Assembly: GCA_963842525.1 (NCBI GenBank)
Contig: CAWJGT010000034.1
Span: 160,001-224,000 of the forward strand
Reading direction: 5' to 3'
Source: an uncultured Holophagales bacterium
GTDB taxonomy: Bacteria > Acidobacteriota > Thermoanaerobaculia > Multivoradales > UBA5704
DNA length: 64,000 bases
Of this stretch, positions 1,649-24,169 are shown in pieces. Positions within the stretch are counted from its first letter, which is position 1, and each line of letters starts with the position of its first letter. Below the pieces are notes generated by a model that did no database searches, was not told the origin of the DNA, and worked only from the letters and a program-made list of their open reading frames with translations. A program made the position numbers and the translations under genes.

Positions 1649-2053
1649 CTATTTCGACCGGGCCGCCTCGGGAGGCGACGGAACCGGTCCCCACCCGCGG
1701 GCCCCCTGCTGTTGCCGCCAAGCGGTCCCGTTCATCCAGGACGCCGAATCGACACCCAATTGCAGGATCTCGATGCCCAGGTTCCCCGCCTGCGCGACGG
1801 GGCCGCTCGGCGCGTCGTTCTTCGGGCCCAGGCCGACGAAGCTGAACGACAGGTCCACCATTGCCTGCTGCAACCGGTCGCCGGCCCGGAAGGCCGAGCG
1901 CAGCCCCGGCCCGAGCGCCTCTTCCGCGGTGCGGGTCACGGCCCCGAAGGCCTTCACCGCCCGGCGCGGAGACATCAGGTTGGTCATCTGCTCGACGCCG
2001 AACAGGGACATCGCCCACGAGAAGCTCGCCATGGAACGGGCCAATTCACGCAT
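1649..2053 (-). CDS. Small protein consisting mainly of the shared 'SFSWAM' helical module
   Basis: RBS GAGGGAGG before ATG 2053; MRELARSMASFSWAMSLFGVEQM is paralogous to three other cluster proteins. Confidence 0.75.
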   Translation of the reverse strand: MRELARSMASFSWAMSLFGVEQMTNLMSPRRAVKAFGAVTRTAEEALGPGLRSAFRAGDRLQQAMVDLSFSFVGLGPKNDAPSGPVAQAGNLGIEILQLGVDSASWMNGTAWRQQQGARGWGPVPSPPEAARSK

Positions 2054-2109
2054 GGTCGTGCCTCCCTCTTTCAACGCAAGCATAATGAAACAGGCGCTGC
2101 CCGGGGGAT

Positions 2110-2898
2110 TCAAAGAGGATTCAAGAGGAGCCCGGCGTCCCGGGCGCGGACGAGGATTTCCTCTCCCAGGCGGCCGTAGGCATGGGCACCTTTCGACCAG
2201 CCCTCGTAGTGGAAGATGGTGCGGCTGTGGGCCGGCGCCTCGGCGAGGCGGACGTTGATCGGAATCTCGGTCTGGCAGACGCTCGCTCCGTAGGTCCCGC
2301 GGAGCCCCTCCACCACCTTCCCGGTCACCGCCGTGCGGCGGTCGGCCATGGTCACGAGGATGCCCAACAGCTCGGGGATCCGTTCGAGGCGCCCGCGGAC
2401 CTCCTCCAGCGCCTCGAACAGCGCCTCCAGGGCCTCGGTGTTCAGAGGCTGCGGCACGACCGGGACGAGGAAGGCGTCGGCGGCGGCCAGGGCATTGAGG
2501 GTCAGGATCGACAGCCCGGGCGGGCAGTCCACGAGGATGACGTCGTAGTGGCGGCGGATGGGAGCGAGCGCCTCCGCAAGGGCCTTCTCCGGCTCTTTCC
2601 GGCGGGCGAGCGCGACGTCGCTGCTCGCCAGGCGCAGCGAGCCCGGCAGCAGATCGATCCTCTCGACGCCGGTGTCCCAGATCGCCTGGCCGGCAGGGAC
2701 CTTGCCGTTCAGGACTTCGGCCACCGACGGCTCGGCGTCCCGCCGGTGGATGCCGAACGAGTGGGTCGCCGAGGCTTGCGGATCGAGGTCGACGACCAGC
2801 ACCTCGAAGCCGCTCTCGGCGGCGAAGAAGGCCGCCAGATTGACCGCCGTCGTCGTCTTGCCGACGCCTCCCTTGATGTTCACCAGGGCCAGGTTCAT
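2110..2898 (-). CDS. ParA/Soj family ATPase
   Basis: Deviant Walker A KGGVGKTT, VDLDPQ, DCPPG, IPINVRLAEAP. Confidence 0.9.
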   Translation of the reverse strand: MNLALVNIKGGVGKTTTAVNLAAFFAAESGFEVLVVDLDPQASATHSFGIHRRDAEPSVAEVLNGKVPAGQAIWDTGVERIDLLPGSLRLASSDVALARRKEPEKALAEALAPIRRHYDVILVDCPPGLSILTLNALAAADAFLVPVVPQPLNTEALEALFEALEEVRGRLERIPELLGILVTMADRRTAVTGKVVEGLRGTYGASVCQTEIPINVRLAEAPAHSRTIFHYEGWSKGAHAYGRLGEEILVRARDAGLLLNPL

Positions 2899-2921
2899 GC
2901 CATGGATCCGCTCACCGCGGC

Positions 2922-4586
2922 TCACGCAGCCACATCCGGCACCATCCTTTCGGCAATCCTTTCGGCCAGGGCGGAGATCGTGATCAGGGGGTTGACCGCC
3001 AGAGCCATCGGAATGATGGCGCCGTCGACCACGTAGAGCCCCTGGTGCACTCCGCCCTCGCCGTCGAAGACCCGGCCGTCCACATCCACCACCCCGGAGT
3101 CGGCGTCCTCGCCGAGATGGCAGCCGCCCATGGGATGCGCCGTGACCAGGTTGTCGTGGTGCGTCCACGGGTTGAACCGGCCGAGGTGGACGAAGGTCCC
3201 GCCGAGGGTCCGGGCGTGCTCGCGGAGCTCGTCGTCGACCATCTTGTAGACCGGGTCCGTGAGGAGGTCCGGCCATTCGACCTGCAGGCGGTCCTTGTTG
3301 TCGAGCACCATCCTGCCCTGGGCGTTGTCGAGCGCCATGGCCAGGTACACCATCGAATGGTTTGCCGCTCCATCCGGCCGCCAACCCACCAGGTCGTCCT
3401 TGATCCGGCCGAGCTCGCGCAGCTTGTCCCCCTTGTCGGTGTCCGTACCGGTGACGGCGGCCAGCCCGGGCAGGGTGTACCGGAAAAAATCGACCAGCCC
3501 GCTGGGAAAGGTGGTGAAGTCCTGGATGGTGAACCGCTGCCGGATGGGCTGGCCGCGGTGGTACTGGATGCCGCTGACGATGGTCGGACCGGGCTGCACC
3601 TGGGCGCGCGGCGAATCCGGGTGATTGCCGTAGCCCAGGACGTTGGTGCGTTCGTTGGTGTTGTACGCCAGGGCCAGATAGTCGCCGTTGCCGCTGAAGC
3701 CGTCGCCCAGGTGGGACGAGGCGTTCAGGCCCTGCTGGACCGAGCGCAGAAGGATCTCGGTCGAGCCCAGCGTTCCGCCGGACAGGACGACGTTCTTCGC
3801 CCGCAGCCGCCGCGGCGCGCCGAAGCCTTTGAGGTGGTTGTAGCGGTAGTGGACGACGTATCCACCGCTGCCCTTCTCGATCCAGAGCACCTCGATCTGC
3901 GTGAAGATCTCGGCGCCCTTTTGCCGGGCGTAGGGGATGTAGTTCATGTACAGGGTGTTCTTGGCGCCGACGTTGCAGCCGGTGATGCAGTCGTTGCAAT
4001 TGATGCACGGCTTCTGGAGGACGCCGACGTGGTTCGGGCCGTCGACGTCGAAGTTGACGGCGATGGGCATCGGCCAGAACTTGTTGCCGTCCGGGACCTG
4101 CTGGGCCCGCTTTTCGATCATCTGCACCTTGGTGAGCTGCAGGGCGTTCGGGTGGGGCCGCACACGCAGCATCTCCTCGGCCTTCTCGTAGTACTTCCAG
4201 AGCTCGCCCGAAGCCGCCAGGTCGCGGTAGAGCCGCGGCCAGCTCTGGTTGTCGAACAGCTCCGGATCGGGCCGCAACGCGACGTTGGCGTTGATCAGCG
4301 ACGTGCCGCCGAGGCCGCTCCCCTTGAGGACGTCGATGTCGTTGCAGAGGTAGTAGTCGATGTAGCCGAGGGGATGCTTCTTGTTGCGGATGTTGCCGGC
4401 GAGCTTGCGCAGGCTGTCCGGAAAGTCGCCGGGATGCCATTCCTGGCCCCGCTCGAGCAGGCAGACCGGCAGCCCGCGTTCGGCCAGCCGCGCGGCGGTG
4501 ATGGCGCCGCCATAGCCGGAGCCGATGACGACGGTGGGATATTCGTCCTTGAGGGTGCCGCTCGCGTCCGCCAGAAGCTCGCTCAC
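2922..4586 (-). CDS. GMC oxidoreductase, cholesterol-oxidase-like
   Basis: VVIGSGYGG FAD motif, GLGGTSLINANV, CxxCxxCxxGC, HPMGGC, VNPLITISALAER; GTG start after GAGGAG. Confidence 0.88.
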   Translation of the reverse strand: MSELLADASGTLKDEYPTVVIGSGYGGAITAARLAERGLPVCLLERGQEWHPGDFPDSLRKLAGNIRNKKHPLGYIDYYLCNDIDVLKGSGLGGTSLINANVALRPDPELFDNQSWPRLYRDLAASGELWKYYEKAEEMLRVRPHPNALQLTKVQMIEKRAQQVPDGNKFWPMPIAVNFDVDGPNHVGVLQKPCINCNDCITGCNVGAKNTLYMNYIPYARQKGAEIFTQIEVLWIEKGSGGYVVHYRYNHLKGFGAPRRLRAKNVVLSGGTLGSTEILLRSVQQGLNASSHLGDGFSGNGDYLALAYNTNERTNVLGYGNHPDSPRAQVQPGPTIVSGIQYHRGQPIRQRFTIQDFTTFPSGLVDFFRYTLPGLAAVTGTDTDKGDKLRELGRIKDDLVGWRPDGAANHSMVYLAMALDNAQGRMVLDNKDRLQVEWPDLLTDPVYKMVDDELREHARTLGGTFVHLGRFNPWTHHDNLVTAHPMGGCHLGEDADSGVVDVDGRVFDGEGGVHQGLYVVDGAIIPMALAVNPLITISALAERIAERMVPDVAA

Positions 4587-4599
4587 GGTCGTCTCTCCT

Positions 4600-6000: not shown

Positions 6001-6189
6001 GAAGTCCTCCGAGGCGTGAGAAAGACGATGGTACTCTGCCGTATCTTAGAGCTTCTTCTAGAATCCGACCAGCGTGGCCCAGGCGACAATAGATCCACGG
6101 AGCCAATTCGTATTCACCGATCATAAGGGGCGGGGCGGCGACCGCTTGCGGCCGCCGCTGAGCCGCCGGACAGGAATCGGAAAGCTCTC

Positions 6190-8777: not shown

Positions 8778-8795
8778 GTGCTTCCTCCTCTGCGC

Positions 8796-10034
8796 TCAAG
8801 CCGTCACCGGGATCATCGCGTACTGCGCCTGCGGGGCTTCGGGCAGGACGCACTCTTCGTCCAAGCAGTCGTGCAGGGTCGCGTCGGTGAATCCCTTGTC
8901 CATCAGCCGCTCGAGGTGGCCGCGGTTCAGGTTCAGCAGGCCGAGCGCCCCGCCTTCGCTCAGCTCCTCGCACGGGTGATAGCGATGGATCGTCATCGGT
9001 TTGTAGGTGAGGTACCGCTTGAGGCGCGGCACGATCAGGTTCATGCCCTTGGCGAGGGACTCCAGCTCGGGGTCCGCGACCTGCTCGCCCGCCTCGATGC
9101 GCCGCAGGAGGCGGATCCCCTGGTTGATCATGGCCGCGTCCTGGATGTCGTCGTTGACCAGCGCCGCCCAGGCGATCTGCTGCAGGCGGTAGTTGGTGGC
9201 GATGGTGCTGCCGAGGGCGCTGTTGGGGATGGAGGCGACGTCCGGGTCGAGGTAGATGACGTGCAGGACCTCCGCGCCCAGGTGGATCGCCTCGCGCAGC
9301 GGGGTGTTCATCAGGACGCCTCCGTCCACGTAGGGCTCGGCCCCCACGTAGGCCGGCGGGAACACGCCGGGGATGGCGCTCGAGGCGAGGATCGCCTGGG
9401 GCCCCAGAGTCTCGGTCATGTCGCGGTTGCGGAAGTACCTCACCTCCCCCGTCGTCCAGTTCGTCGCGACGACCGAGAGCTGCTTCTCGGTGCGGCGGAT
9501 GGCCTCGAAGTTGATGCTCCCGCGGATCGCTCTCGCCCAAGGGTCGATCGAGATGAAGGTCGGGAAGTTGATCAGCCCGGTGAGCCTCTCCCCCAACGTC
9601 TCGTTGCGCGCCGTCGCCAGGTGCACCATTCGCTGGATCCCGTCCCAGGCGACGGCCGCGCTGTCCCCGGCAAACTGCAGGAACGGGTGCAAGGGGTTCG
9701 GCAGATAGGACCTGGGGTTCAGGTAATAGGTCGGGTCGAAGCGGAACCGGTAGCCGCCGTTCCGGCCCGTGACGTCGGCGGCCAGGGTCTCGAGCCAGAC
9801 CCGCTCGAGGTTGGTGATCGCCGCAGGGCCGTAGGCGTCCCACTGGGAGGCCAGAAAGGACGCGTTGAACGAGCCGATCGAGGTGCCGAGGAAGATGTCC
9901 GGATCGAGCAGTTGGCCGCGGGTCGCCACGGACTTGCCGCTGAACAGCGCCTTGAGGACGCCGACCTCGTAGGCGCCGTTGGCGCCGCCGCCCGAGAGGA
10001 CGAGCGCGACTTTTCTTCCCTGTGGATCGGTCAT
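8796..10034 (-). CDS. Patatin-like phospholipase
   Basis: SGGGANG, GTSIG nucleophile elbow, ASSAIP, DGG; ATGA overlap with upstream patatin. Confidence 0.92.
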   Translation of the reverse strand: MTDPQGRKVALVLSGGGANGAYEVGVLKALFSGKSVATRGQLLDPDIFLGTSIGSFNASFLASQWDAYGPAAITNLERVWLETLAADVTGRNGGYRFRFDPTYYLNPRSYLPNPLHPFLQFAGDSAAVAWDGIQRMVHLATARNETLGERLTGLINFPTFISIDPWARAIRGSINFEAIRRTEKQLSVVATNWTTGEVRYFRNRDMTETLGPQAILASSAIPGVFPPAYVGAEPYVDGGVLMNTPLREAIHLGAEVLHVIYLDPDVASIPNSALGSTIATNYRLQQIAWAALVNDDIQDAAMINQGIRLLRRIEAGEQVADPELESLAKGMNLIVPRLKRYLTYKPMTIHRYHPCEELSEGGALGLLNLNRGHLERLMDKGFTDATLHDCLDEECVLPEAPQAQYAMIPVTA

Positions 10035-11272
10035 CGGGTTGCACCTCCAGCTCTGCCCTGGGGGGGACAGATGCAATCGGATTGATCGCAGTCGTGGTGG
10101 ACCGCGTCCTCATAGCCCTGGGCGATGAGGTTGTCGATGTTCTCCAGGCTGAAGTCGAGGAGGGTGTCAGGCGCTCCCAGGCTCGTCTTCGGCCGGTAAC
10201 GGTGGATCTCCAGCGGGAGATAGGGCGGGCCCGCGGTTGCGGCGGAGCCCTTCTCCATCTTCTGCCGCGCCCGCGCGATGGGCATGGCGCTGCGCGGGGC
10301 CCCCGGGCCGAGCACCGCCAGCTCCTCGTTCACCGTGGCGGCGGTCCGGATGTCGCCGTTGATCTGCGCCGCGAGCAGGATGGTGTAGACGCGGCTGAAG
10401 GTGTCCAGCGTGTTCGGCAGCGGCGGGAACGGGATCTCGGAGGCCAGCGGATCGACGTAGATCACGTGCAGCACCTTGGCCCCGTCACGGATCGCCGGCC
10501 TGAGCGGCGTGTTCATGAGCAACCCGCCGTCGACGCAGATCGTGTTGTCCACCTCGACCGGAGGGAAGATGCCCGGGATGGCGGCCGAGGCCAGGATGGT
10601 GTCGGTCCCCAGCCGGTCGGTGACGTCGGCCTTGCGGAACACCTTGGTCTTGCCGTTGACCCAGTCGGAGGCCACGACGGACAGCGTGCTGGCCGAGGTC
10701 CGCAGGCGGCCCAGGTCGAGCGTGTCCGCCAGCAGCTCGTCAAGCGGCGAGCGCGAGAACAGGGCGGAGAGGTTGAAGGTCTCGAGCAGGCGGATACGCA
10801 CGGGCGCCTCCGAGGTGACGAGCTGCGTCCCGTAGGCGAGCGCATAGGCGCCCCAGAAGGCCGCGTCGCGTCCCATGTCGGCGAGGAGGGCGAGCGGCTT
10901 CTGGAGGCAGCCGGGATCGAGCAGCCGGCTGGGATCGCAACGCAGCCGGTAGACGCCGTTGCCGCAGCTCTGCGCGGTATCGGCGATGCGCCGGCACCAG
11001 ATCTCCTTGAGGTGTCCGATCGTGCCCGGCCCGGCCGCGTCCGCCTGCGCCAGGAAGGCGGCGTTGTAGGCTCCCACCGAGGTGCCGGTGAAGATCCGCA
11101 CCGTGAGCGGCCGGCCGCCGGTGATGGGCGAGGCTCCCTCGAACAACGCCTTCATGACGCCGACCTCGTAGGCGCCGCGGGCTCCCCCGCCCGAGAGGAC
11201 GAGGGCGTGCCGGGCGCCGTCTCCGCCGGCGGGAGGCGCGTTCGCGGCCGGCGAAGAGGCGGTCCTGATCAT
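10031..11272 (-). CDS. Patatin-like phospholipase (paralog)
   Basis: SGGGARG, GTSVG, ASAAIP, DGG. Confidence 0.92.
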   Translation of the reverse strand: MIRTASSPAANAPPAGGDGARHALVLSGGGARGAYEVGVMKALFEGASPITGGRPLTVRIFTGTSVGAYNAAFLAQADAAGPGTIGHLKEIWCRRIADTAQSCGNGVYRLRCDPSRLLDPGCLQKPLALLADMGRDAAFWGAYALAYGTQLVTSEAPVRIRLLETFNLSALFSRSPLDELLADTLDLGRLRTSASTLSVVASDWVNGKTKVFRKADVTDRLGTDTILASAAIPGIFPPVEVDNTICVDGGLLMNTPLRPAIRDGAKVLHVIYVDPLASEIPFPPLPNTLDTFSRVYTILLAAQINGDIRTAATVNEELAVLGPGAPRSAMPIARARQKMEKGSAATAGPPYLPLEIHRYRPKTSLGAPDTLLDFSLENIDNLIAQGYEDAVHHDCDQSDCICPPQGRAGGATR

Positions 11273-12872: not shown

Positions 12873-15800
12873 TCAAGGCAAGACGTCTTTTTGGATCGGC
12901 GGCTTGGTGTTGACGTTCGACGTGGCGCCTCCGTCGATCTGGATACCCACAAAGGAAGCGTTCCTGGCGGTGGAGATCTGGACCGTCACCGGCAGCGGGA
13001 AATCCTTTCCGTTCTTGCTCCAGATCCCATAGCCGGCGAAGGCGACGACGTCATAATCGCCTGCCCCGGCGCGGGACGTGAGCGGGTTGGCGAAGTGGAC
13101 CCAGGAGAGGCTGCGCAGCCGGAACTTGCCATTCTGGCTGTGGTTCTCGTATTCGAACGAAGCAGGCAGGCTCCCCGGGTCCGCCGGAATGTCATAGCTG
13201 TAGGAGAAGGAGTCGCCGCTGGAAGCGAGCACCTTGGTGGCGCTGCCTTTCTTCGCGAACTGCGGCGGCGCGGGATCGCCGTCCACGGCCTGGATCCAGA
13301 AGAAGGGGTCGAGCGACGAGCCCGGTCCGGCTGGAAAGCCCACCGCCAGGTTCGGCTGGGGGAAAAGGAAGCCCTCGGGATACGGGATGTGGACCTCGCC
13401 GCAAAAACGGTAGACGGTCTCGCCTCGTGGCGTCTTCTGGAAGCTCGCCGGACCGCGGAAGAGAAACGAGCTGCTCGGAGTGCGCGGCTCGACCCGCAGC
13501 AGGGCGAAGAAGACGTTCTGGCCGATGAAGCCGCGGTGGAGCTGCCCGCCGAGCACCTCGCCGGTGCGCACGTCGACCGCGCCGACGGCCAGGTCGAACG
13601 GATCGCTGACCAGGAAGACGTCGTCCAGATAGAAGGAGCGCCGCGGGAAGCGCAGGAACTCGTTGAACCCGAGCTGCCCGGTCGCGAGCTGGCCGGGGAA
13701 CCCCCCGGCGGAGAGGCCCTGCGAAATCGGTCCCGGCGGCTCCGGGGCGGGAGCCAGGAACCCGCCCGGAGGCATGCCGCTGACGTAGAACGGCACGGTG
13801 TTGCCCTCCCGCTCGCCGAACTGGACGTGCAGCCGCCCCATGAGCTGGGAGCGCCCTGTCCCGGTCCCGCCGAGGAACTCGCCAGTGAGGGTGAAATCGT
13901 CGCCGAAGCTCGTGTTGCGGGCGATGTAGGTGAATTCCCGGACCGTGTTGGTGGGGATCTCCGGCACGCCTTCCGGCGTCTCGATGGGCCCTTCCCGGGT
14001 GCTCAAAAAGATGTGCGGGTGGAGCGCCAGGCCGCGTGTCGGGATGCTCGCGAACTGCGGCATCTGGCCGGCAAGGCTGGCAAAGGGGAGCGGGAAGCGG
14101 ACCGGCTGCGCGCCGAAGACCTGTTGCAGGGGCAGGAAGGTGGTGCCGAAGAGCTCGAAATCGAGCTTGCCGTCCGCCCTCTGGGTGAACTGCGCCACGG
14201 CCGTGCCGTACTGGCCGGGAAAGCTGATGGGCACCCGCGGGAAGTTGGGGTTGACCAGCGCCAGGGCGAAGATCGCCGTATTGGCGAAGGCGAAGTTGAG
14301 GTTCGGCGTCGCGGCAGGAGGCTCGACGAGCTGGCCCGTGGTCAGGTCCAGCAACCCGGTGGAAACCATGCCGGGAAAATCCGTGACCTGCTGCTGCTTG
14401 CCCGGCAGCTTGAAGAACTGCGGCGCGGCGAGGATCCCGTCGTCGCCCTGCAGGCCGTCGAGCACCGAAAGCTCGAACTGGGTCACGTTGTTCACCGGCG
14501 GCGAGAAGCGGATGCGGACCTGCCCGCTGAGGTGGCTGTCCATCAGGGCCAGGCCGCCGAAGAGCACGCCGCCGCAGCCGCCCATCGCCGCATACCTGGG
14601 ATCCTGGCAGTCGACGGCGCGCAGGGCGTCGCCGAAATAGCTGCGCTCCTTGTTGAGCGGCAGGATTTGTTCCAGGCCGGGCGGCAGCTCGAGCGGCTTG
14701 GCGAGCGGCGGCTGGGGACACTGATCGACCGGCCGCCGGACGGCGGCGGACTTGGGCGCCACGGGGCTCGCCGCCGCTCCCCCGGTGGCGGAGGTGCCGA
14801 CCTGGGCCGGCTGGGCCGGCTGGGCCGGAGGAGGCGGCGGGAGCTGCCCGGCCGTCAGCTCAGGTCCCTCGGCGGGCTGGTAGAGGACGACCGGATCGCT
14901 CGCCGCCACCGGGCCGAGGTCGATCAGCGGGAAGGATGCGCCATAGACCTGGTTGAGGAGCTGCAGCGCCTCGTTGGCGATCAGGGCCTGTCCGGTCCGG
15001 CCCGGGTAGTAGCCGTTCAGCGTGTAGAGCCCGCCGAGGAAGCCCGCGGTCAGCCGCCGCGAGCCGGTGCCGGTGCCGACGCCCTCGGCGCGGACGCGGC
15101 GGAAGAGAGCGTGGAGGTCGCAGACGAACGCGCCTTGTTCCCGCGCCAGGTTGGCGAGCTCGGCGTTGATCTCGCGGATGCGGGCGCTGATCCGGCCGGC
15201 GGTCTCGCCGCTCAGCACGCTGCCTTGCGGCAGCGGACCGAGGCCCTGCGAGAGAAACTGGTAGCCGATCTCCACCAGCCCGCGGACGGTGATCAGGTCG
15301 TCCTCGTGCAGGCCGTAGACCTTGAGCAGGATCGCGGGCTCCAGCTTGACGACCTGCGCGGCCGCCGCGATGGAGGAGACGCAGGCGGTGTCCAGGGGAT
15401 CGGGGACGTTCATCACCAGGACCGCGGCGCCCGCCTCGCGCAGCGGCTTGAGCAGCCGGAGGTAGTCGGCGCGGCAGCGCGCGGCATCCGGCAGCCGGCG
15501 GGTGTCGCCGGTGACGACGGCCTCGATGGCCTCCGTGTAACCGAGGGCGACGAGCGCCAGGGTGGGCCTGCGCTGCAGTGCCCGCTGAAGCTGGGTGGGT
15601 AGCTCGCCTGCGGCGCCCTCCAGCATCTCCGGCATGCCCAGGATGAGGTTGGCGGCCGTCTGCCGGGCGTCGTCGCGGTGCACCAGCGGCGGTTGCGGAC
15701 GAAGCTTGAGCGCGTCGGCGATCCGGAAGCCCGGCACCGACAGGTTGCCCACCGCGGCCGGCGGTGGCCACGGCTCGAGGACCGTCGTCTGCATCAGCCC

Positions 15801-16463
15801 CGGAATCACGACCGGCAGCGGCGGGAAGCCCGGCAGATTGCCGATGCCCGGCTGCTGGAGGAGCGGCTGCACGAGATCGGTCTGCATCTGGCAGGCCATC
15901 TGCGCCGGGAAGCTCCAGCGCTGGAAGTCGTCCCAGAGCGCGAAGTCTCCGGCGCCGGCGGCGAGCCCCTCGCCGAGCACGACGAAGACGCCCCGGTCGA
16001 GCCGGCCGGCATCGACAGGCGTGCGCGGCGCGAGCGGCGCCGCGAGGGCCGCGGAGGAGGACATGGACACAGTGGAGCCCGGGGCGGCGGACTGCGGCGT
16101 CCCGGTCGCTCCCATCCCGGGCGGTCCGGCCGCGCCGCCTCCGGCCGCGCCCATCCCGGGCGCGGCGCCGAACATCATGTCGACGAGCCCCCTCTGCATG
16201 CGGTCCCCGGCCTGGAAGAGCGGGCGTAGCCCGTCGCCCAACTGCTCCCCGGTCGCCTGCGCGACCGCGTCGAGCGAGGCGACGGCCTTGTCGGGCGCGA
16301 GCGCGTTGCTCAGGCTCTTGACGCCGAACAGCGACATGGCCCAGGAGAACCCGAGCGTCGATTTCATCAGCTCGCGCAGAGCGCCGACCGGCCCCATGGC
16401 AGATCCGGGGCCCTGCCCGGGCGCGGGCTTGCCGCCCGGCCGGTCGCCTCCCTGTCCGTTCAT
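12873..16463 (-). CDS. Large multidomain protein: SFSWAM module + degenerate SGNH/GDSL domain + beta-rich C-terminal domains
   Basis: ATG 16463 overlaps upstream stop (ATGA); VVLGEGLAAG, NLSVPG, RPTLALVALG, GGLYTLNGYYP match SGNH blocks with catalytic substitutions. Confidence 0.8.
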   Translation of the reverse strand: MNGQGGDRPGGKPAPGQGPGSAMGPVGALRELMKSTLGFSWAMSLFGVKSLSNALAPDKAVASLDAVAQATGEQLGDGLRPLFQAGDRMQRGLVDMMFGAAPGMGAAGGGAAGPPGMGATGTPQSAAPGSTVSMSSSAALAAPLAPRTPVDAGRLDRGVFVVLGEGLAAGAGDFALWDDFQRWSFPAQMACQMQTDLVQPLLQQPGIGNLPGFPPLPVVIPGLMQTTVLEPWPPPAAVGNLSVPGFRIADALKLRPQPPLVHRDDARQTAANLILGMPEMLEGAAGELPTQLQRALQRRPTLALVALGYTEAIEAVVTGDTRRLPDAARCRADYLRLLKPLREAGAAVLVMNVPDPLDTACVSSIAAAAQVVKLEPAILLKVYGLHEDDLITVRGLVEIGYQFLSQGLGPLPQGSVLSGETAGRISARIREINAELANLAREQGAFVCDLHALFRRVRAEGVGTGTGSRRLTAGFLGGLYTLNGYYPGRTGQALIANEALQLLNQVYGASFPLIDLGPVAASDPVVLYQPAEGPELTAGQLPPPPPAQPAQPAQVGTSATGGAAASPVAPKSAAVRRPVDQCPQPPLAKPLELPPGLEQILPLNKERSYFGDALRAVDCQDPRYAAMGGCGGVLFGGLALMDSHLSGQVRIRFSPPVNNVTQFELSVLDGLQGDDGILAAPQFFKLPGKQQQVTDFPGMVSTGLLDLTTGQLVEPPAATPNLNFAFANTAIFALALVNPNFPRVPISFPGQYGTAVAQFTQRADGKLDFELFGTTFLPLQQVFGAQPVRFPLPFASLAGQMPQFASIPTRGLALHPHIFLSTREGPIETPEGVPEIPTNTVREFTYIARNTSFGDDFTLTGEFLGGTGTGRSQLMGRLHVQFGEREGNTVPFYVSGMPPGGFLAPAPEPPGPISQGLSAGGFPGQLATGQLGFNEFLRFPRRSFYLDDVFLVSDPFDLAVGAVDVRTGEVLGGQLHRGFIGQNVFFALLRVEPRTPSSSFLFRGPASFQKTPRGETVYRFCGEVHIPYPEGFLFPQPNLAVGFPAGPGSSLDPFFWIQAVDGDPAPPQFAKKGSATKVLASSGDSFSYSYDIPADPGSLPASFEYENHSQNGKFRLRSLSWVHFANPLTSRAGAGDYDVVAFAGYGIWSKNGKDFPLPVTVQISTARNASFVGIQIDGGATSNVNTKPPIQKDVLP

Positions 16464-17764
16464 GCGAAGCTCCTCCCGTGAAGGGCCCATTGCGGCAGCG
16501 CCTCGGTGTCGAGCCAGTCGGGGACCTGGCGCCAGGTCTCGAGCGAGCCGATCAGGGTCTGAAAGTGCTGCTGGAAGTGGGTGACGAGAAAGTCCCGTTC
16601 CAACTGTTTGAGGGAGATGCAGAAGTCCCGCGCCGCCAGGCCGCCGGTCAACAGGTTGGCCGCCGAGATGGAGAGCGTCACGGGGTCGAAGGTCAGGCCG
16701 CTGCCGGGCAGCCTGTCGAAGGCCCGTTTGACCGGCGCCAGGAGGTAGCGGGAGGTCCCCAGGGTCAGCAGGCTCGCCACCTGGTAGCCCCATTCGACGG
16801 GGTTGAGCGACACGTTGACGATCTGGGTGGGGCGGTTGACCACGAAGATCGCCTCCGCCTTGATCTTCCCCGCCGTGTCGACGGACCACTGGATGATCTC
16901 GATGGCGGCTTCGAACTCGCCGGGGCCGTAGGCGGGGCCAAAGCTGGGCGGCTTGGGGTTCTTGATGAAGGCGTAGCCGAAGCCGTAACGGCCCAGCAGG
17001 TCGGGCGTGGGCTCCTCCTCGTTGACCACGAAGTCGCGGTTCATGATGAGGTAGCTGCCCTCCTTGAGCGGCACGCTCAAGGAGGGGGTGCCGGGCCCGA
17101 ACGGCTGGATGGGCAGGTTGAAGTTGAAGATGTAGACGCGCGGCAGGATCCATTCGTATTTCGGCCCGATCTCGCGCAGGTCGACGATGGCGGAACGGTC
17201 GGTCTCCGGGAAGACGCCGATCCGGTCGCCGGCCGCCAGCTGGTAGAAGATCTGCCGGAAGCCGAAGCCCATGAGCTGGGGGTCCTCCTCCGGGCACCAG
17301 CTCAGGGGGCGCAGGAAGTCGGGGATGGGCTCGCGGTCGCTCGGCGGGATGAACGCCTCGGGCAGCCGGAAGCTGCTGACGCGCATGAAATAGCGCAGCA
17401 CGAACTCGCGGAGCTGATCGCGCATCCACTGCGCCGCGATGCCCTTGCTCGTGCCCGGCGACTTGGGCTGGTCGTAGAACATGGCCTGGTAGTTGCCCAT
17501 GATGGGCATCTGCCGGCCCCCCACCTCCGCGGTGTCGAAGAAGCCGAAGCTCTCCTCGTCATGCCGGTCGAATGTGGTCGTGAGCGGAAACCTCTGGGCG
17601 AAGCTCTTCGTGGCCCAGGCCTGGTCCCACCAGCGCTTGAGGTCGAGCCCCCGCCGCAGATAGGTCCCGGCGCTGGCCAGCGCCGCATCCTGCTCGCCGG
17701 TGGTCCCGAAGTCCGGCGAGGACCTCTCGGCGCCACCACCGCAGCAGCACGGGGAGCCGGTCAT
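16460..17764 (-). CDS. Hypothetical protein
   Basis: ATG 17764 in ATGA overlap; ordered, aromatic-rich sequence from MTGSPCCCGG. Confidence 0.75.
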   Translation of the reverse strand: MTGSPCCCGGGAERSSPDFGTTGEQDAALASAGTYLRRGLDLKRWWDQAWATKSFAQRFPLTTTFDRHDEESFGFFDTAEVGGRQMPIMGNYQAMFYDQPKSPGTSKGIAAQWMRDQLREFVLRYFMRVSSFRLPEAFIPPSDREPIPDFLRPLSWCPEEDPQLMGFGFRQIFYQLAAGDRIGVFPETDRSAIVDLREIGPKYEWILPRVYIFNFNLPIQPFGPGTPSLSVPLKEGSYLIMNRDFVVNEEEPTPDLLGRYGFGYAFIKNPKPPSFGPAYGPGEFEAAIEIIQWSVDTAGKIKAEAIFVVNRPTQIVNVSLNPVEWGYQVASLLTLGTSRYLLAPVKRAFDRLPGSGLTFDPVTLSISAANLLTGGLAARDFCISLKQLERDFLVTHFQQHFQTLIGSLETWRQVPDWLDTEALPQWALHGRSFA

Positions 17765-18666
17765 CGCGGCCTCCTGCGCGGCGGACCGGGGGGACGGTTG
17801 CCACGCCGCGGCCCGACGGGCGGTGCTCCTGCACCGGAGCCGCCCGGCGAGGGTGGCGCCTCCGCAACCGGCGGAGCCGCCTTGCGCGGAGGTCTCGGCC
17901 GGCGTGGGGGTACCGTGACGGCCGGAGTAGGCTCGGCAGTCGGCGCGACCACCGCGGGACCCGGGGCGGGCTCGTAGGCCGGCGGCGGTGCGATTGCCGC
18001 GACCGGCCCTCGGGCCGCAGACGGTTGTGGAGCAGGCGACAAGAGGAGCGGACGGCGGAGCCCGAGCAGAGCGTTCCGGATGCCCTCCAGGGAGTCGCTC
18101 TTGCCGCGGCCGCAGCCGCTTGAAGGCGTGCGCGGCCAACGCTTGAGCACCCCGTACGAGACCCGCAGGTACTTCTTGTCGGCATGCGTGATCTCGTTGC
18201 GGCGGTCCTGCGCCACGGCGGCCTGGTACTCGGGCGACTGCAGATACATGGCCACGATCCAGGTGGCGAAGCCCGCGGCGGTCATCGGGGTGGTCACCAG
18301 GATCACTCCCCCGGTGAGGACTTTTTCGTGGCACCGCCGGATGGAGACGAGGGCGTACTTCACGAGCTGGATCGCGTCGTCGTCGAGGTCTCGCGGCGAG
18401 AGGGTCCGGCTCTCCTGCCGCTCCACGACCACGACCGTGGTGCTGCTGGCCGCGGGCTGCTGCCAGGCAGCGGGCTGCCGGGGGGCGGGCACCGGGAAGG
18501 CGCCGGCGCTCGCCCCGGCTCCTGGCGCGGGAGGCAGCGCCGGCTGCGCCGGCGGTGACATGGCATTCCACGGAGAGCCCTGGTTGCCGGGCCGCGGACC
18601 GCCCAGCATAGTCAACATCTGACCCATCGTGGCATCGAAGAGCCGGCCGAACAGAGTCCAGATCAT
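17761..18666 (-). CDS. Hypothetical protein with 'FATW...KKYLRV' domain and Pro-rich tails
   Basis: ATGA overlaps at both ends; domain paralogous to 19970..20581. Confidence 0.75.
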   Translation of the reverse strand: MIWTLFGRLFDATMGQMLTMLGGPRPGNQGSPWNAMSPPAQPALPPAPGAGASAGAFPVPAPRQPAAWQQPAASSTTVVVVERQESRTLSPRDLDDDAIQLVKYALVSIRRCHEKVLTGGVILVTTPMTAAGFATWIVAMYLQSPEYQAAVAQDRRNEITHADKKYLRVSYGVLKRWPRTPSSGCGRGKSDSLEGIRNALLGLRRPLLLSPAPQPSAARGPVAAIAPPPAYEPAPGPAVVAPTAEPTPAVTVPPRRPRPPRKAAPPVAEAPPSPGGSGAGAPPVGPRRGNRPPGPPRRRPR

Positions 18667-19814
18667 GGCCTGGACACCCCCTTTCCCGGCGGGCAGCGAA
18701 ATAGCGGAGCCATCCCGCCGCTCTGCCGGAGTCGCGGATAGGTGTGCTGGAGCGCCTCCTCGCAAGGTGCCACGACGCGATCGCGCCAGAGCGCGGCCAG
18801 AGCACGGCCGTCCGGGCGATGCGCGAGGAAGGCGTCGAGATGGAAATCGAGCCCTACGATGTCATACCAGACGAGCACGGCCGAGGCGACGCCGTTCGAG
18901 AAAGCCTCGGCCGAGCCGATTTCTCCGTCATGGCGCCGCAGCACGCCGGCGAGGATCGCCGGGTGCCGGAGGTTGACCAGGGTGAGCGCCCAGGCCAGGC
19001 CCGCGGTGGCGTTGCGCCGGCCTGGCTCGTCGGGAGGCTCCCGCCAGGCCTTCTCGAACGCCCGCCCCAGGGCGCCGCTGTGAGGCACTGCATGGGTGGG
19101 TGCGAAATAGAGACCGCGGCCGGCGCCGTGCCAGAGATGCTCGGCGAGAACCGGATCGATCGACCCCAGCAGCTCGCCGAGCCCGGAGAGGAGATAGGGA
19201 TGGAGATTCCTGGCCACCAGCCCCAGCGCCTCGACCGCGATGCAGCCGTACCCGGGTCCGGCGTTCTCCTCCCACGACGCATGCCAGCGGGCGAGGCCCT
19301 CCGGGTTGCGTGCGCCGTCCGCCGCGAGCAGGCGGTCGGCGAAGCACAGGCCGGCTCCGGTGTGGAGCGGCAGGACGGCGCCCAGGGGCAGACCTTCCAG
19401 CCTGAGGTCCGCCAGGAGACGGCCTGGAGCCGCTGCCGCAGCCCAGGCGCTCCGGGCACGAGCGTAGCCGAGCCCTTCCACCGTCCACACCGCACGGTAG
19501 GGACCGAGCGCCGCGGCCCGCAGGACCTGCTCGGCCAACGGCCTCTCGCCGGCCGCCAGGTCCAGCCGTGCGTCCTGAAAGTGCTCGAACGCTTCGAGCT
19601 TGTTGGCGAGCTCGAGCCACTCGAGCCCCACCTCTCCCGGCAGCGCCGTCTGTGCCACCTTCGCCGACTCCTGCAGCAGCCGCAGGGCCGCTCCCAGAGT
19701 CTGCCGAGACGCGGCCTCCCCCAGCACCCCACCAAGCTGGCGGGCGCTGTGCACCATCAGCGAAGAGGACAGGTCCATCATCGGTTCGCCGGCCTCACCG
19801 AACGTACGGAGCAC
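18663..19814 (-). CDS. Hypothetical helical protein, remote DUF1702-like (paralog 1)
   Basis: WTVEGLG, LHTGAGL, LWHGAGRGLYF, GLAWALTLVN, FSNGVASA; start uncertain. Confidence 0.7.
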   Translation of the reverse strand: MLRTFGEAGEPMMDLSSSLMVHSARQLGGVLGEAASRQTLGAALRLLQESAKVAQTALPGEVGLEWLELANKLEAFEHFQDARLDLAAGERPLAEQVLRAAALGPYRAVWTVEGLGYARARSAWAAAAAPGRLLADLRLEGLPLGAVLPLHTGAGLCFADRLLAADGARNPEGLARWHASWEENAGPGYGCIAVEALGLVARNLHPYLLSGLGELLGSIDPVLAEHLWHGAGRGLYFAPTHAVPHSGALGRAFEKAWREPPDEPGRRNATAGLAWALTLVNLRHPAILAGVLRRHDGEIGSAEAFSNGVASAVLVWYDIVGLDFHLDAFLAHRPDGRALAALWRDRVVAPCEEALQHTYPRLRQSGGMAPLFRCPPGKGVSRP

Positions 19815-19969
19815 TCTCCACGCGATCGTTCATCCCTCCTTGCCACGGCGCGAGCCCACAGCACGGGACGAGACGCGTGTCCCCAGGGGCGCCCGGTGCG
19901 CGGCAGATGCGCGCCGCGCGCCCCTGTCGGACGACAGGAGGCTCCGGTCCAGCCGCAGCCGAAGCGGCG

Positions 19970-20581
19970 TCAGCTGACCGCAGTCTCTTCGCGCCGCGAC
20001 CCGGAGAGCTCCCGAATCGCCCTTTCGATCCCGCGCAGGACGTCGACCTGCCGGTCGTCGCAGCAGTCCTTGTCCGGGCGCGGCCACGACTCCAGGACGT
20101 GGTGGTAGACCCGGAGATACTTCTTCTCCTCATGGGGAATCGGCTCGCCGTTCGGGTCCTGCAAGTAGAGCGCGACGACCCAGGTGGCGAAGGACTCGGG
20201 GCTCATGTCGTCCGAGTAGATGATCTCGCCCTTGGTGATGATCCTCTCGGCGCAACGCTTGATCGAGACGATCGTGTACTCCACCAGCTTGACTTCGTGG
20301 TGATCGTTGTCGCAGCAGCAATCCGACATTTTGCGTTCCTCCTTGGCTTGCTTGGTGGCGCCGACCCCCTGCGCCCGTTGGTGGTCCGTATACGTTCCAG
20401 CCCCCGGGAATCCCGTACCCGGAGCATTCGGAGCATTCGGAGCATTGCCAGCCCAGATCGCGCTCTGAGCACTGTGCCCGCCCGGTTGCTGCAGACCCCG
20501 CATCGCCGTGGCGAGCAGGTTGATGCAGCCGGTGAGCATCGAGACCGGCAACCACATCATCTGGCCGAACAACTGCATCAT
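19970..20581 (-). CDS. Hypothetical protein with 'FATW...KKYLRV' domain
   Basis: VKLVEYTIVSIKRC..FATWVVALYLQ..KKYLRV..WPR shared with 17761..18666. Confidence 0.75.
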   Translation of the reverse strand: MMQLFGQMMWLPVSMLTGCINLLATAMRGLQQPGGHSAQSAIWAGNAPNAPNAPGTGFPGAGTYTDHQRAQGVGATKQAKEERKMSDCCCDNDHHEVKLVEYTIVSIKRCAERIITKGEIIYSDDMSPESFATWVVALYLQDPNGEPIPHEEKKYLRVYHHVLESWPRPDKDCCDDRQVDVLRGIERAIRELSGSRREETAVS

Positions 20582-20593
20582 TCGTGCACCTCC

Positions 20594-22219
20594 TCAGCCG
20601 GCGCGGCGCGCAACCCAGAGCAAAAAGCCCCCGAACACCAGGAAGAGGGCTGCGGCGATTTCGTCTCCCCGGCCGGCGAGCGCTCCCGACTCGGCGAGCC
20701 GGCGCAGCACGAGGGCCGCAGCCCCCAGCACCATCAGCAGGGAGGCGACGACCAGAGACGAGCTCCCCTGCGGGCGCGGCCGGCGGCCAGGCTCCGCGAC
20801 GACGGACCGGTCACTCCCTTCGGCGGCCAGGGTGAGCAGCTCGTCGAGCTTCTGCGGCAGCACCGACAGCAGGGCGGCGTAGCGGTCGAGCTGGCCGCCC
20901 CAGTGGTCGGGACGGATCGCGTCCCGCACCTGCGAGAAGCTCGTCAGCACCCGGACCTCCTGGAGGCCTTCGAGGAGCGCATCCATTTCGGGAGCCAGGC
21001 CCCGGGCGGCGGCGGCGGTCGCGAAAAGGCCGCGGTAGAAGACCAGCAGCTGGTAGCGCGGCCGGTAGCCGCAGGAGCGCGCGACGCGCGCATAGACGAA
21101 GAGGTGCTCGGCCAGGCTTTCGCCGCCGGCGCTCCAGGCGCCGTCGCGAAAGGGGACGATCTGCCGTAGCTGCAACCGGAGCTCCTCCTCGGAGGCGGCG
21201 GTCCCCTCCGCGAGCATTTCGGGCAGCAGGCGCGTGCAGGCCTCGTCCGGGTCGCGCGCCGCCACGGCGATCACGAACCCCAGCAGATCGGCCTGCGCCG
21301 CCGCCGGCGGCCGCACGAAAGCGGCGCCCTGCCAGCCGATCCGCCCGTCCGGCAGCACCCGGACGTCCTCGGGGCCCAGCTCGACGGGAAAGGCGCGGCC
21401 CAGGAGGGCCTGTCGCAGCCAGACGGAGCAGAGATGGCGCACGATCTCCCGCCGGTCCGGCCCCCCCAGGCTCCGCGCTCCCACCCGGCCGATCTCGCCG
21501 AGGGACACGCCGCCCAGGTCCGCGGTGGTGAGCAGCCGCGAGGTCGTCAGATCGGGGAACACTGACGGCACGGCCAGGCGCCCGAAGCCTGCCGCATCGC
21601 CAGCCAGCAGCTCCAGGGACCGGGCCACGGACCGGAAGCTCGTCTGCTCCTGGAGGTCCTGCCGGAAGCCGGCGACCGCCTCTTCGGCGGCCAGGGCGCT
21701 CCAGCCGTTGGCGGCCAGGGCCTCGGCGACGCGGGAGAGCATCTCGAGATCGAGCGCGAACGCCTCGTCCTCCTCGGTCCGGACCAGACGCAGGATCACG
21801 GGCTCGCCGCTCGCCAGCCGTCCGCGGTGGACCTGCACCAGCAGGCGGGACTCGTAGGGAGTTTCCTCCAGTGCGGCGAAGGCCTCGGCAGCGGGAGCGC
21901 CGAGCTCGGCCGCGATCCGTTCGCGCACCGCGCCGATCGGCAGCGGCGCCGCCCGGCTGCGGATCGCCGCCAGCGCCAGCCCCTCGCTCGCGGTCACGAG
22001 GTCGATCCGCGAGGCCAGGTAGGCCCCGAAGGCCGTGAAGACCGGCCCCAGCTCCTCGAGGGCCCCCTGCAGACGGTGGACGAGGGACGCGTCGGCGGGC
22101 CCGGCCCCGGGGCGCAACGGGCGGGGGCGGCGCAGCAGCTCCCAGCGGGCGAGGCAGCTCTCGACCTCGCGCCTGCGTTGCTGCGCCGCCGGCCGGCCGG
22201 CTCGCCGCGGCTGCATCAC
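20594..22219 (-). CDS. AarF/ABC1/UbiB-like pseudokinase with C-terminal TM hairpin
   Basis: ABC1 scaffold (LEELGPVF, IAAELG, VQVHRG, LAVPSV) but KxGQ, VKV, HADxHxxN and DFG are all replaced. Confidence 0.75.
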   Translation of the reverse strand: MMQPRRAGRPAAQQRRREVESCLARWELLRRPRPLRPGAGPADASLVHRLQGALEELGPVFTAFGAYLASRIDLVTASEGLALAAIRSRAAPLPIGAVRERIAAELGAPAAEAFAALEETPYESRLLVQVHRGRLASGEPVILRLVRTEEDEAFALDLEMLSRVAEALAANGWSALAAEEAVAGFRQDLQEQTSFRSVARSLELLAGDAAGFGRLAVPSVFPDLTTSRLLTTADLGGVSLGEIGRVGARSLGGPDRREIVRHLCSVWLRQALLGRAFPVELGPEDVRVLPDGRIGWQGAAFVRPPAAAQADLLGFVIAVAARDPDEACTRLLPEMLAEGTAASEEELRLQLRQIVPFRDGAWSAGGESLAEHLFVYARVARSCGYRPRYQLLVFYRGLFATAAAARGLAPEMDALLEGLQEVRVLTSFSQVRDAIRPDHWGGQLDRYAALLSVLPQKLDELLTLAAEGSDRSVVAEPGRRPRPQGSSSLVVASLLMVLGAAALVLRRLAESGALAGRGDEIAAALFLVFGGFLLWVARRAG

Positions 22220-23583
22220 GCCGCGCCCCTCCCGCCCCAGCCCTCGCGCTGGAGCTGCGCCACGAACGCCGGCAGGTCGCGGTACTCGAAGACCTCGCCC
22301 AGCCGGGCGCTCGCCTTGATCACCGGATAGTACACGTCGAGCGCGGCCGTGAACGGCCCGCGCACCAGGTGGTCCCAGAGCTCCACCAGCCGGCGGTTCG
22401 ACGGCTCCGGCTCGTACCGGCGGAAGGCTTCGAGGAGGGGGGCGTCCGGCGTCGTGTCGAAGCGCATGACCGTCGAGGAGGCCACGCCGTTGGCGAAGGC
22501 GCCGTCGCGCGCCAGCTCGTCGCCATAGGGCTCGATCAGCAGCTTGGCGAGGACGTTCGGATCGCGCTGGGAGACCAGCGTGTAGCCCCAGGCCGCGCCG
22601 GCCACCGCGCTCAGGCGGGCCTGTTCGTCCGGGGCTTCCTGCCCCGCCTGTTCGAAGAGCAACCCGTCCGAGCCCGGCAGGAAGTTGATCGCGCCGAAAT
22701 AGATCGCCCGGCCCGCGCCGTGCCAGAAGTAGCCGCGGAACTCGGGAGCGACCTCCTGCACCGCCCGGTCGATGGACTGCGTCAGCTCGGGGTGGAAGGT
22801 GCGGGTCACCAGGCCGAGCGACTCGACGGCGCAGCCGAGGTATCCCGGACGCGAGTTGTCCACGTCGAGCTCGAAGATCTGGCGCACCGTGTCGCGGAGC
22901 TGCTCGAACGAGGTCTGGTTGCTAGCGTTGCTCAGGAGGTGCTGCGCGATGGACAGACCGATGCCCGCATGGAGCATGGTCAGGCTCTTGTCCGGCAGGG
23001 CGCTCGTCCGCTCGTCGTTCAGGATGCGGTGCGGCGTCATGCCGTGATTCCAGAAGCTGTCGCCGTAGTCGTGCCCCAGGCCCTCCACCGCCCAGAGAGC
23101 GCGGAACGGGCCGAGGGCGTAGGACCGGTCGAGCAGCTCGTAGAGGGGGAATGGCAGAGTCGTGGGCACCCCGATCAGCTTGGCCACGTCGAGGACGAGG
23201 CAGAAGACCTCGCCCTTGAAGCGGATCTCCTCCAGGGCGAGCCCCCCGTTGCCCTCCGCGACCAGGCGGGCCGCCACGGCCGACCGCTGCGCCGCCGCCA
23301 TGGAGGCGTTCAGCCAGAGCGTCGGGTCCAACATCTGCGGACTGAGAAGGCTGGGCCCCATCGTCACCAGGGCGTTCTGCAGGCATTGGCCGACCTGGTA
23401 GATCTGCTTCAGCCAGCTCTCCTCGCCGAGCTGGCCCGACATCGCGCCGGTGACCGCACCGAGGCCTCCGGTGGCTTTCTGGCGCTCCCCGGCCGACGAC
23501 GACAGCAGGCGGAGGAGCTGCTGTGTGCCGTACAGCGGTGCCCCCCAGGAGAGGCTGACCGCCGATTTGGTCAGGTCGCGCAT
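22216..23583 (-). CDS. SFSWAM module + DUF1702-like domain (paralog 2)
   Basis: MRDLTKSAVSLSWGAPLYG; LWAVEGLG, LHAGIGL, FWHGAGRAIYF, FANGVASS. Confidence 0.75.
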   Translation of the reverse strand: MRDLTKSAVSLSWGAPLYGTQQLLRLLSSSAGERQKATGGLGAVTGAMSGQLGEESWLKQIYQVGQCLQNALVTMGPSLLSPQMLDPTLWLNASMAAAQRSAVAARLVAEGNGGLALEEIRFKGEVFCLVLDVAKLIGVPTTLPFPLYELLDRSYALGPFRALWAVEGLGHDYGDSFWNHGMTPHRILNDERTSALPDKSLTMLHAGIGLSIAQHLLSNASNQTSFEQLRDTVRQIFELDVDNSRPGYLGCAVESLGLVTRTFHPELTQSIDRAVQEVAPEFRGYFWHGAGRAIYFGAINFLPGSDGLLFEQAGQEAPDEQARLSAVAGAAWGYTLVSQRDPNVLAKLLIEPYGDELARDGAFANGVASSTVMRFDTTPDAPLLEAFRRYEPEPSNRRLVELWDHLVRGPFTAALDVYYPVIKASARLGEVFEYRDLPAFVAQLQREGWGGRGAA

Positions 23584-23599
23584 GGCCGTTTCCTGCCGC

Positions 23600-24169
23600 T
23601 CAAATCCTCGGCGCGGCCGAGGTCCAGCCCGCGGGCACGTCGATCGGGCTACCGGCCGTGCCGCCGAGGGCGGCGTCCGTCGCGCGGGCGGTCGCGTCCG
23701 CGGCACGGTAGGCCACGTCCGTCATGCCGGCGGCGGTCTGGTAGGCGGCCTCGTCCATGACGGCCGCGGTGCGGTAGGCCGCATCTCCGGCGCTCGCGGC
23801 GGCGCGGTCGCCCTGGCCCATGCTCCCCGGCATGACCTGCCCCATGCCGCGCTCCATGCCCCGCATCGAGCGCTGCATCATCTCCGAGCTCATCCGCATC
23901 CAGGAGGTCGGATCGAACGCCTGGACGTTGAAGACGCTGAACATCAGGTCCGTCACGCCGCGCTGGATCTGGTCGCCGGCGTCGAACAGACCGCGCAGGG
24001 TCGGGCCCAGCTCCTTCCTCATCGTGCCGGTCACGGTGTCGAATCCCTCGGCCGCCTTGTCGAAGGGGCGGCTCATGTCCTGCGGCATCGACAGGTTGAG
24101 CATCTGCTTCAGGCCGTAGAGCGGCATCGCCCAGGAGAAACTCAGCATCGACTTGGTCAACTCACGCAT
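23600..24169 (-). CDS. Small SFSWAM-module protein, Met/Ala-rich (phasin-like composition)
   Basis: RBS AGGAG; MRELTKSMLSFSWAMPLYGLKQM; C-terminal 11-aa D/ExAYxxA repeats. Confidence 0.75.
   Translation of the reverse strand: MRELTKSMLSFSWAMPLYGLKQMLNLSMPQDMSRPFDKAAEGFDTVTGTMRKELGPTLRGLFDAGDQIQRGVTDLMFSVFNVQAFDPTSWMRMSSEMMQRSMRGMERGMGQVMPGSMGQGDRAAASAGDAAYRTAAVMDEAAYQTAAGMTDVAYRAADATARATDAALGGTAGSPIDVPAGWTSAAPRI

Follow-up and report, generated by a model that had tools for sequence, protein, structure and literature searches.

The module and its copies at the locus

The window analysed here is a 64,000-nucleotide stretch of DNA from an uncultured Holophagales bacterium of the phylum Acidobacteriota (assembly GCA_963842525.1, contig CAWJGT010000034.1, positions 160,001 to 224,000 of the forward strand). 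It holds a gene cluster in which four proteins, all encoded on the minus strand, share an N-terminal module of about 75 amino acids. In two of them the module stands alone. S1 (23600..24169; 189 aa) consists of the module at residues 1-78, a fourth helix and a low-complexity tail, and its gene lies between two genes of the ABC1 kinase family. S2 (1649..2053; 134 aa) ends in a GWGPVP motif and lies directly upstream of a conserved gene at 380..1642. The other two proteins are fusions. One of 455 aa (22216..23583) joins the module to an all-helical domain that we call X. The other, of 1196 aa (12873..16463), consists of the module at residues 28-100 (about 16382-16160), a 54-aa linker of G/P/A/S/Q residues, a pseudo-SGNH domain and a C-terminal region without assignment.

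An earlier note on this DNA had claimed such a module of some 70 aa, with a consensus that begins R[ED]LxKSxxxFSWAMxL[FY]G, on these four proteins, and our results bear this out. The copies are 32.5-50% identical to one another over 70-103 aa (BLAST E-values from 1e-6 to 4e-19). Smith-Waterman z-scores for the six pairs run from 15.5 to 32.2, and none of 1000 shuffles equalled the score of any pair. The consensus fits the alignments, and all four copies are where the note had put them. When a profile built from the four copies was run against the whole 9.9-Mb genome, it found only two further strong matches, both on contig C2, where they sit in a second version of the cluster with many frameshifts; the next match had an E-value of 0.54.

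Two paralogues of the X protein, also on the minus strand, keep parts of the module. The protein encoded at 25862..27091, 48% identical to the X fusion, retains only helix 3. The likeness of its N-terminus to the second half of the module, which the note had pointed out, is weak in pairwise comparison (best z 3.3). Profile-to-profile comparison supports it: 24 N-termini of this type match helix 3 of a 120-sequence stand-alone profile with an E-value of 0.001 and a score of 21.1, against 6.3-14.4 for 30 column shuffles. The second paralogue (18663..19781) begins with a degenerate remnant of helix 1 (E 6e-4; score 23.7 against 5.9-13.7 for shuffles), as judged from a template of only five sequences.

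Structure and conservation of the module

What kind of structure does the module form? AlphaFold2, given an alignment of 57 copies, predicts three loosely packed helices at positions 2-26, 35-53 and 56-81 (pLDDT 59.6, pTM 0.33). In stand-alone and X-fused copies they are followed by a conserved proline and a fourth helix. The claim that the module is amphipathic and helical thus stands in part: it is predicted to be helical, and helices 2 and 3 are amphipathic, with a mean hydrophobic moment (muH) of 0.38 against 0.35 for 22 phasins. Helix 1 is hydrophobic without being amphipathic (mean H 0.59, muH 0.17). Hydrophobic periodicity over profile positions 34-76 peaks at 98 degrees, with 96 and 100 degrees scoring nearly as high.

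Conservation among 365 sequences (effective number 247 at 80% identity) centres on helix 1, the most conserved part, and on a GDxxQ motif in helix 3. That helix 1 is both hydrophobic and so well conserved points to packing against protein in addition to binding of lipid. Mean-field covariation in the same sequences (top z 4.2) revealed no clear pattern of contacts. None of the 57 copies has a core of signal or transmembrane strength at a Kyte-Doolittle threshold of 1.6; the maximum over 19 residues is at most 1.38, while two signal peptides of the source genome reach 2.4-2.6. By its hydrophobicity, then, the module is neither a Sec signal nor a transmembrane helix. Beyond the module, 47 of 142 mostly stand-alone module proteins have a GWG[PAST] motif no more than 45 residues from the C-terminus, and lysine-rich tails occur in five of the 142, a few divergent stand-alone copies.

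The module has no significant match in Pfam, NCBIfam or PDB sequences; the known domain of unrelated function that the note had said would overturn its proposal did not appear. The phasin families PF05597 and PF09361 reached their cut-offs on none of 57 and none of 41 module sequences, and the chlorosome Csm family had no match on module sequences. A supposed resemblance of helix 1 to the 'IWLAGLG' segment of phasins was rejected by profile comparison. Foldseek with the models of the module and of X gave nothing at an E-value of 0.001 or better, and the best VIA-align Z was 4.9, the module model being of low confidence. The nearest Atlas clusters are unnamed and come from Acidobacteriota only (scores 0.90-0.91).

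Among 201 genomes of the class, 7 have the module, one of them by a marginal match (E 4e-4) that we discount. The corresponding figures are 11 of 401 genomes for the phylum and 2 of 17 for a second phylum; five further genomes have three to six matches each. Matches in GTDB fall in Thermoanaerobaculia, Holophagales, Blastocatellia and other Acidobacteriota, with one in Nitrospinota and one in an unclassified bacterium. Metagenome stretches were also used, 80 being kept of 280 that matched. We found no description of the module or the cluster in the open-access literature, subscription journals lying largely outside this coverage.

Cargo and fusion history

The note had proposed building a hidden Markov model (HMM) from the four copies and listing its fusions. 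The resulting list is a lower bound, 8000 candidates having been scored in the homologue search, and it reveals a module that is portable onto unrelated cargo. In Acidobacteriota and the second phylum it occurs alone or on at least five unrelated cargo types. Among 125 distinct matches from metagenome and genome loci, 77 stand alone (a count that includes at least one frameshift artefact), 23 are fused to X and 8 to a domain Z and/or an alpha/beta hydrolase. Three more are on SGNH domains and one on another domain without a name; nine are cut by contig ends. BLAST left four fusions unassigned, and by eye two of these carry X and two a further helical domain. An apparent ABC1-module-X fusion (P0028) was set aside, since it looks like read-through across a frameshift.

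Of the 120 X homologues listed from a total of 452, 86 have the module in full and 4 in part. By HMM the other 30 lack it, and the majority of these are of the helix-3-only type. AlphaFold2 models X in the 455-aa fusion with pLDDT mostly above 90 and the module with only 38-77, so the module behaves as an appendage. The note had described the partner as DUF1702-like. The fusion is there, and the kinship holds only as remote homology: PF08012 reached its cut-off on none of 19 members, and the PF08012 match in the source genome is a different gene. An hhalign comparison gave E 4e-4 over 197 columns, against 0.065 for the reversed profile, at a probability of 34% and with a five-sequence template, and the Atlas clusters nearest X have PF08012 on 11-13% of their members.

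Two of the hydrolase fusions carry an intact haloalkane dehalogenase, scoring 348 and 363 bits where the NCBIfam cut-off is 241. The SGNH domain in the window is 28% identical to a protein of the same genome with a Sec-type signal and an intact catalytic triad. In the window copy the module occupies the position of the signal and the triad is lost, with GEG and NGYYP replacing GDS and DGVHP, as the name pseudo-SGNH had implied. Most of the fusions have a flexible linker; the linkers measured in eight of them are 32-80 aa long and 56-84% G/P/A/S/Q.

How did the module come to be on these proteins? In a tree of 57 copies, with all rows kept, the copies cluster by cargo, 15 changes being needed against 31.8 after shuffling. 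Hydrolase fusions fall in three places, in one case beside the stand-alone copy of the same genome. The tree has few columns and 29 of its 54 inner branches are open. This pattern suggests old fusions followed by repeated new recruitment. In four genomes, moreover, the module-X gene is on a different contig from the core made of the first ABC1 gene, the module and the second ABC1 gene (for example L159:9026-10387; L131-L133), suggesting that the tag works in trans. We conclude that the module is real, unnamed, repeatedly recruited and part of an undescribed lipid cluster, and that it is very probably a portable localisation or assembly tag.

The surrounding cluster

The two ABC1 genes flank S1. 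K1 (24210..25865) encodes an ABC1/UbiB kinase (PF03109, E 6e-54) with the KFGQ motif, the catalytic HADLHPAN, the DFG motif and a hydrophobic C-terminus. K2 (20594..22219) encodes an ABC1-like pseudokinase (PF03109, E 1e-21), which by alignment to K1 has lost KxGQ, the beta-3 lysine, the catalytic loop and DFG. Both are on the minus strand, as are the remaining genes given here with two-dot coordinates. Y1 (19970..20581) has a conserved N-terminal segment of its own, a linker and an uncharacterised domain; sequence comparison identifies Y2 (17761..18666) as its paralogue. The Y proteins begin with a second conserved segment (GQMxxLP...), unrelated to the module and followed by a low-complexity linker, which is possibly another tag. 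Profile comparison shows no homology between this N-terminus and the module, and we rejected it as a further copy.

A conserved uncharacterised protein is encoded at 16460..17764. Two patatin lipases (8796..11272; PF01734) have intact GxSxG and DGG motifs. The conserved protein encoded at 380..1642 has two GxGxLAGL-type repeats and belongs to no family that we found; we take it to resemble the allene-oxide-cyclase/dirigent barrel. The order of S2 followed by a gene of this family recurs in loci L022, L028, L030 and L040. Two response regulators, presumably of LuxR type, stand at the head of the cluster (27191..28578), and similar pairs lie upstream in L018, L023, L026, L027 and L038. From 27091 to 8160 the genes mostly overlap or lie at most 40 bases apart, with one gap of 188, a spacing consistent with a single transcription unit. 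Embedded in the cluster at 2110-7662 and 11289-12851 are genes for a ParA-like ATPase, a GMC oxidoreductase, a FadL-like outer-membrane channel and two DUF4331 proteins whose N-termini resemble signal peptides; similar genes are embedded in loci L032 and L042.

Relatives have the same core, in the order acyltransferase, K1, module, K2. K1 is directly upstream of 36 of the 42 stand-alone copies in metagenome loci with at least 700 nt of upstream sequence, the stand-alone gene usually lies between K1 and K2, and the module is confined to genomes, and mostly to loci, that have the ABC1 pair. We counted gene families in 34 locus sets of unequal length (3-26 kb), so the counts are lower bounds. K1 is present in 28 sets, K2 in 26, an SDR-PlsC/DGAT-like acyltransferase in 20, the 16460 family in 18, X in 16, Y in 15, the 380 family in 14 and patatin in 13. 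HMG-CoA-reductase-like and SGNH genes occur in 10 sets each, desaturase-like genes in 9, halogenase-like in 8, carotenoid-oxygenase-like in 7, FabF in 6, and START and ArsA in 3 each. The module's neighbours are, by their predicted families, lipid-handling. In the divergent clusters L151-L153 and L158, two START/polyketide-cyclase proteins and a pair of ArsA/Get3-like ATPases follow K2; these ATPases could chaperone the hydrophobic helix 1.

A model for the function of the module

We propose that the module serves as a portable tag at the N-terminus, by which several unrelated proteins of the cluster dock on a predicted intracellular lipid body, with the stand-alone copies as its coat. We put the probability of this reading at about one half. 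What favours a lipid body is the overlap of the gene set with the cyanoglobule proteome, the lipases and the acyltransferase in it, and the existence of bacterial N-terminal droplet-targeting domains. In this model, the product of the KS/ACP, HMG-CoA-reductase-like, desaturase-like and PlsC/DGAT-like enzymes would be an acyl lipid, neutral or pigment-like, that is kept in a globule bounded by a monolayer. Helices 2 and 3, with helix 4 where present, would lie on the monolayer, and helix 1 would pack against its counterparts in other copies or bind the K1/K2 pair. Fusions would deliver hydrolases and scaffolds (X, pseudo-SGNH, dehalogenase) to the coated surface, and the patatins would mobilise the stored lipid. 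K1 may govern binding, for instance by phosphorylating conserved Ser/Thr residues of helix 1, as their conservation alone hints. A bolder proposal, which we advance only tentatively, is that the cluster specifies a bacterial lipid organelle, self-contained and so far undescribed, with its own lipid, a coat of modules, control by the ABC1 pair and recruitment of enzymes by fusion to the tag: an operon-encoded analogue of the plastoglobule whose address code can be transplanted.

Several observations weigh against the lipid-body model. Only 32 of the 57 copies exceed their own shuffles in amphipathicity. Helices of the globular X domain reach a muH of 0.39-0.45, so amphipathicity is unspecific and cannot tell a lipid-binding helix from one packed in a bundle. 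All faces of helix 1 are conserved, and W13, A14, G19, Q22, G63 and Q67 of the module stand at 90% or more; such conservation exceeds the needs of a pure lipid-surface helix. The C-terminal segments of K1 and K2 are of transmembrane strength (Kyte-Doolittle 2.1-2.4) and would fit a bilayer better than a monolayer. The patatins and the acyltransferase carry no module, and the literature listings yielded no report of a lipid body in these organisms. Nor does the likeness to phasins and apolipoproteins that the note had inferred amount to homology: an hhalign comparison with a 22-sequence PF05597 profile scored 11.4, inside the shuffled range of 6.6-13.4, and Pfam gave only sub-threshold matches. 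These were to Phasin_2, on one sequence of the 57 and three of the 41, and to ApoLp-III, on one of the 41 and none of the 57 (E 0.042, 14 bits against a cut-off of 36).

Might the module instead bind protein? As a docking domain, its copies would co-oligomerise and gather enzymes and scaffolds into a soluble lipid-handling metabolon. The precedent is the Ubi complex of Escherichia coli, which UbiJ and UbiK organise and which works with the ABC1 protein UbiB (PMC10470549). The strong conservation of helix 1 and GDxxQ, the poorly packed monomer model, the ABC1 and START neighbours and the two X paralogues that keep complementary halves of the module all speak for this. No SCP2/UbiJ family match was found on the cluster proteins scanned, however, covariation lacks a clear contact pattern, and the patatins and the DGAT-like enzyme point to stored lipid; we consider this main rival possible but rather unlikely. 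It does not exclude our own account, since lipid-bound coats can need lateral contacts: droplet-protein helices are stabilised in this way (PMC8064757). Less likely again is anchoring of cargo to the inner membrane, on the bilayer or through a membrane-anchored K1/K2 receptor, with no separate organelle. The position of the stand-alone gene next to K1 and the hydrophobic C-termini of both ABC1 proteins would suit such an anchor. It would not readily account for the presence of two different stand-alone copies in a cluster or for their long low-complexity tails.

A loading or export signal for a contractile injection system, microcompartment or encapsulin would also be N-terminal, occur alone or fused and take the place of a Sec signal, as the module does in the SGNH family. 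PF06841, a phage-tail tube family, has ten matches in the source genome (contigs C3, C9, C19 and C30), suggesting several putative contractile-injection loci. Yet no such gene was seen among the cluster proteins scanned, which cover part of the neighbours, and the cargo is metabolic. PF06841 was not found in three of five module-bearing genomes. Encapsulin is present in only one of the five, not the source genome, and shell genes of bacterial microcompartments (BMC) were not found in the source genome, which is 96% complete. We regard a signal of this kind as very unlikely. Finally, duplication within a tandem operon could simply have left the copies behind, with no shared function; they are clustered, and some are truncated or degenerate. 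The full module on 86 of the 120 X homologues listed, its presence in two phyla and identities of 33-50% between paralogues on unrelated cargo make this the most improbable of these explanations.

Comparison with known systems

The module would act like a droplet- or granule-targeting domain yet belongs to no family tested. Phasins (the PF05597 PhaF/PhaI type and PF09361) are likewise small amphipathic helical proteins of similar mean muH. In the source genome a true phasin lies in an operon (two ArsA genes, PHB regulator, phasin, patatin) at about 485500-498000 of contig C34 (L160:2578-15037), where genes for an HMG-CoA reductase and an ABC1 kinase adjoin it. We liken this operon to the module cluster because its gene set is similar, patatin, the ArsA pair and ABC1 included, and has a phasin in it. 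The module differs from phasins in several ways: it has no detectable homology to them, many enzymes within a single cluster carry it, and the polyhydroxyalkanoate (PHA) synthase family PF07167 was not found in any of six module-bearing genomes (93-100% complete). Some classes of PHA synthase may lack this domain. A WS/DGAT gene is present on contig C3 of the source genome.

The Rhodococcus protein MLDS offers a precedent for an N-terminal droplet-targeting domain that carries another function (PMC5504291). The module resembles MLDS and JLP of Rhodococcus and the 11-mer helices of eukaryotic perilipins in its own 98-degree period, and a few module copies have lysine-rich tails; but there is no sequence match, the tails inspected have no PAKKA repeats, and the module is common to a set of metabolic cargo. 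Cyanoglobules contain three ABC1 kinases, a DGAT2-like acyltransferase, a START-like protein and carotenoid enzymes (PMC12223511), and amphipathic helices target proteins to plastoglobules (bioRxiv 10.1101/2023.09.28.559984). The gene sets are alike in ABC1, DGAT-like, carotenoid-enzyme and START-like members. The coat of these globules, in contrast, is a fibrillin beta-barrel, the portions of those sources at hand mention no shared homologous tag, and no fibrillin match was found on the cluster proteins scanned.

The E. coli Ubi metabolon (UbiB, UbiJ, UbiK) combines an ABC1 protein with non-enzymatic lipid-binding factors that organise hydrophobic chemistry (PMC10470549). The module genes likewise have an adjacent ABC1/UbiB-family gene, whose product scores below the UbiB equivalog cut-off. 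The cluster differs in having a kinase and pseudokinase pair, a tag fused to cargo and no ubiquinone-pathway match at cut-off; no UbiJ/SCP2 or UbiK match was found on 20 window proteins or selected neighbours. Short shared terminal modules that address different enzymes to one compartment also occur in the form of BMC encapsulation peptides, encapsulin cargo-loading peptides and chlorosome Csm motifs. The BMC and encapsulin peptides have only a fraction of the length of the module, which exceeds them several times over.

Why does such a tag matter? What directs proteins to bacterial lipid droplets and plastoglobules is poorly understood. Targeting determinants had not been identified, according to the fibrillin preprint (bioRxiv 10.1101/2023.09.28.559984), and the role of UbiB is called elusive in PMC10470549. 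One cluster supplies a candidate tag, natural fusions to haloalkane dehalogenase, a well-characterised enzyme, and a candidate cognate kinase/pseudokinase pair, which makes the questions of targeting and of the ABC1 role testable in a heterologous host. If the lipid-body model is true, the tag could serve as a tool for directing enzymes to lipid bodies; if the module is a docking domain, it is still a new assembly domain in abundant soil bacteria.

Other loci of the source genome and the window

The second cluster, on contig C2 (C2:1-10947; L001), has genes for SDR-PlsC, K1, S1, module-X, K2, Y, a second X, a second Y and a 16460-like protein. Its frameshifts may reflect assembly error, decay or contamination of the genome bin. 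The upstream half of the cluster seen in relatives occurs elsewhere on contig C34, about 450 kb from the window cluster (about 641900-651900; L043:7903-17882). There a FabF pair, an HMG-CoA-reductase-like gene, SDR-PlsC, a phytoene-desaturase-like gene, a halogenase-like FAD protein and a carotenoid-oxygenase-like gene stand behind SnoaL and several ASPIC/UnbV genes. In locus L020 the second FabF lacks the catalytic Cys, and we take this pair to be like KS/CLF pairs. Two paralogues of the 16460-17764 protein without the module lie at C24:183673-186269, next to a Ser/Thr-kinase-like open reading frame (ORF). PDB sequence searches with the X, Z, 380-1642 and 16460-17764 families found nothing significant.

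Three features of the window lie outside the cluster. At 30758-31413 lie a small ORF, presumably antitoxin-like, and an ORF that is presumably PIN-domain-like. The segment 31401-31811 repeats the first 60 or so codons of the gene at 33386-35149, about 2 kb upstream of it, with a 530-aa ORF on the opposite strand between them. We take that gene to be PilB/GspE-like, and the arrangement looks like a putative insertion with duplication. The region 36091-39592 has a low GC content (0.57-0.59) and three ORFs, which we assume to resemble TIR/NTPase defence-type proteins.

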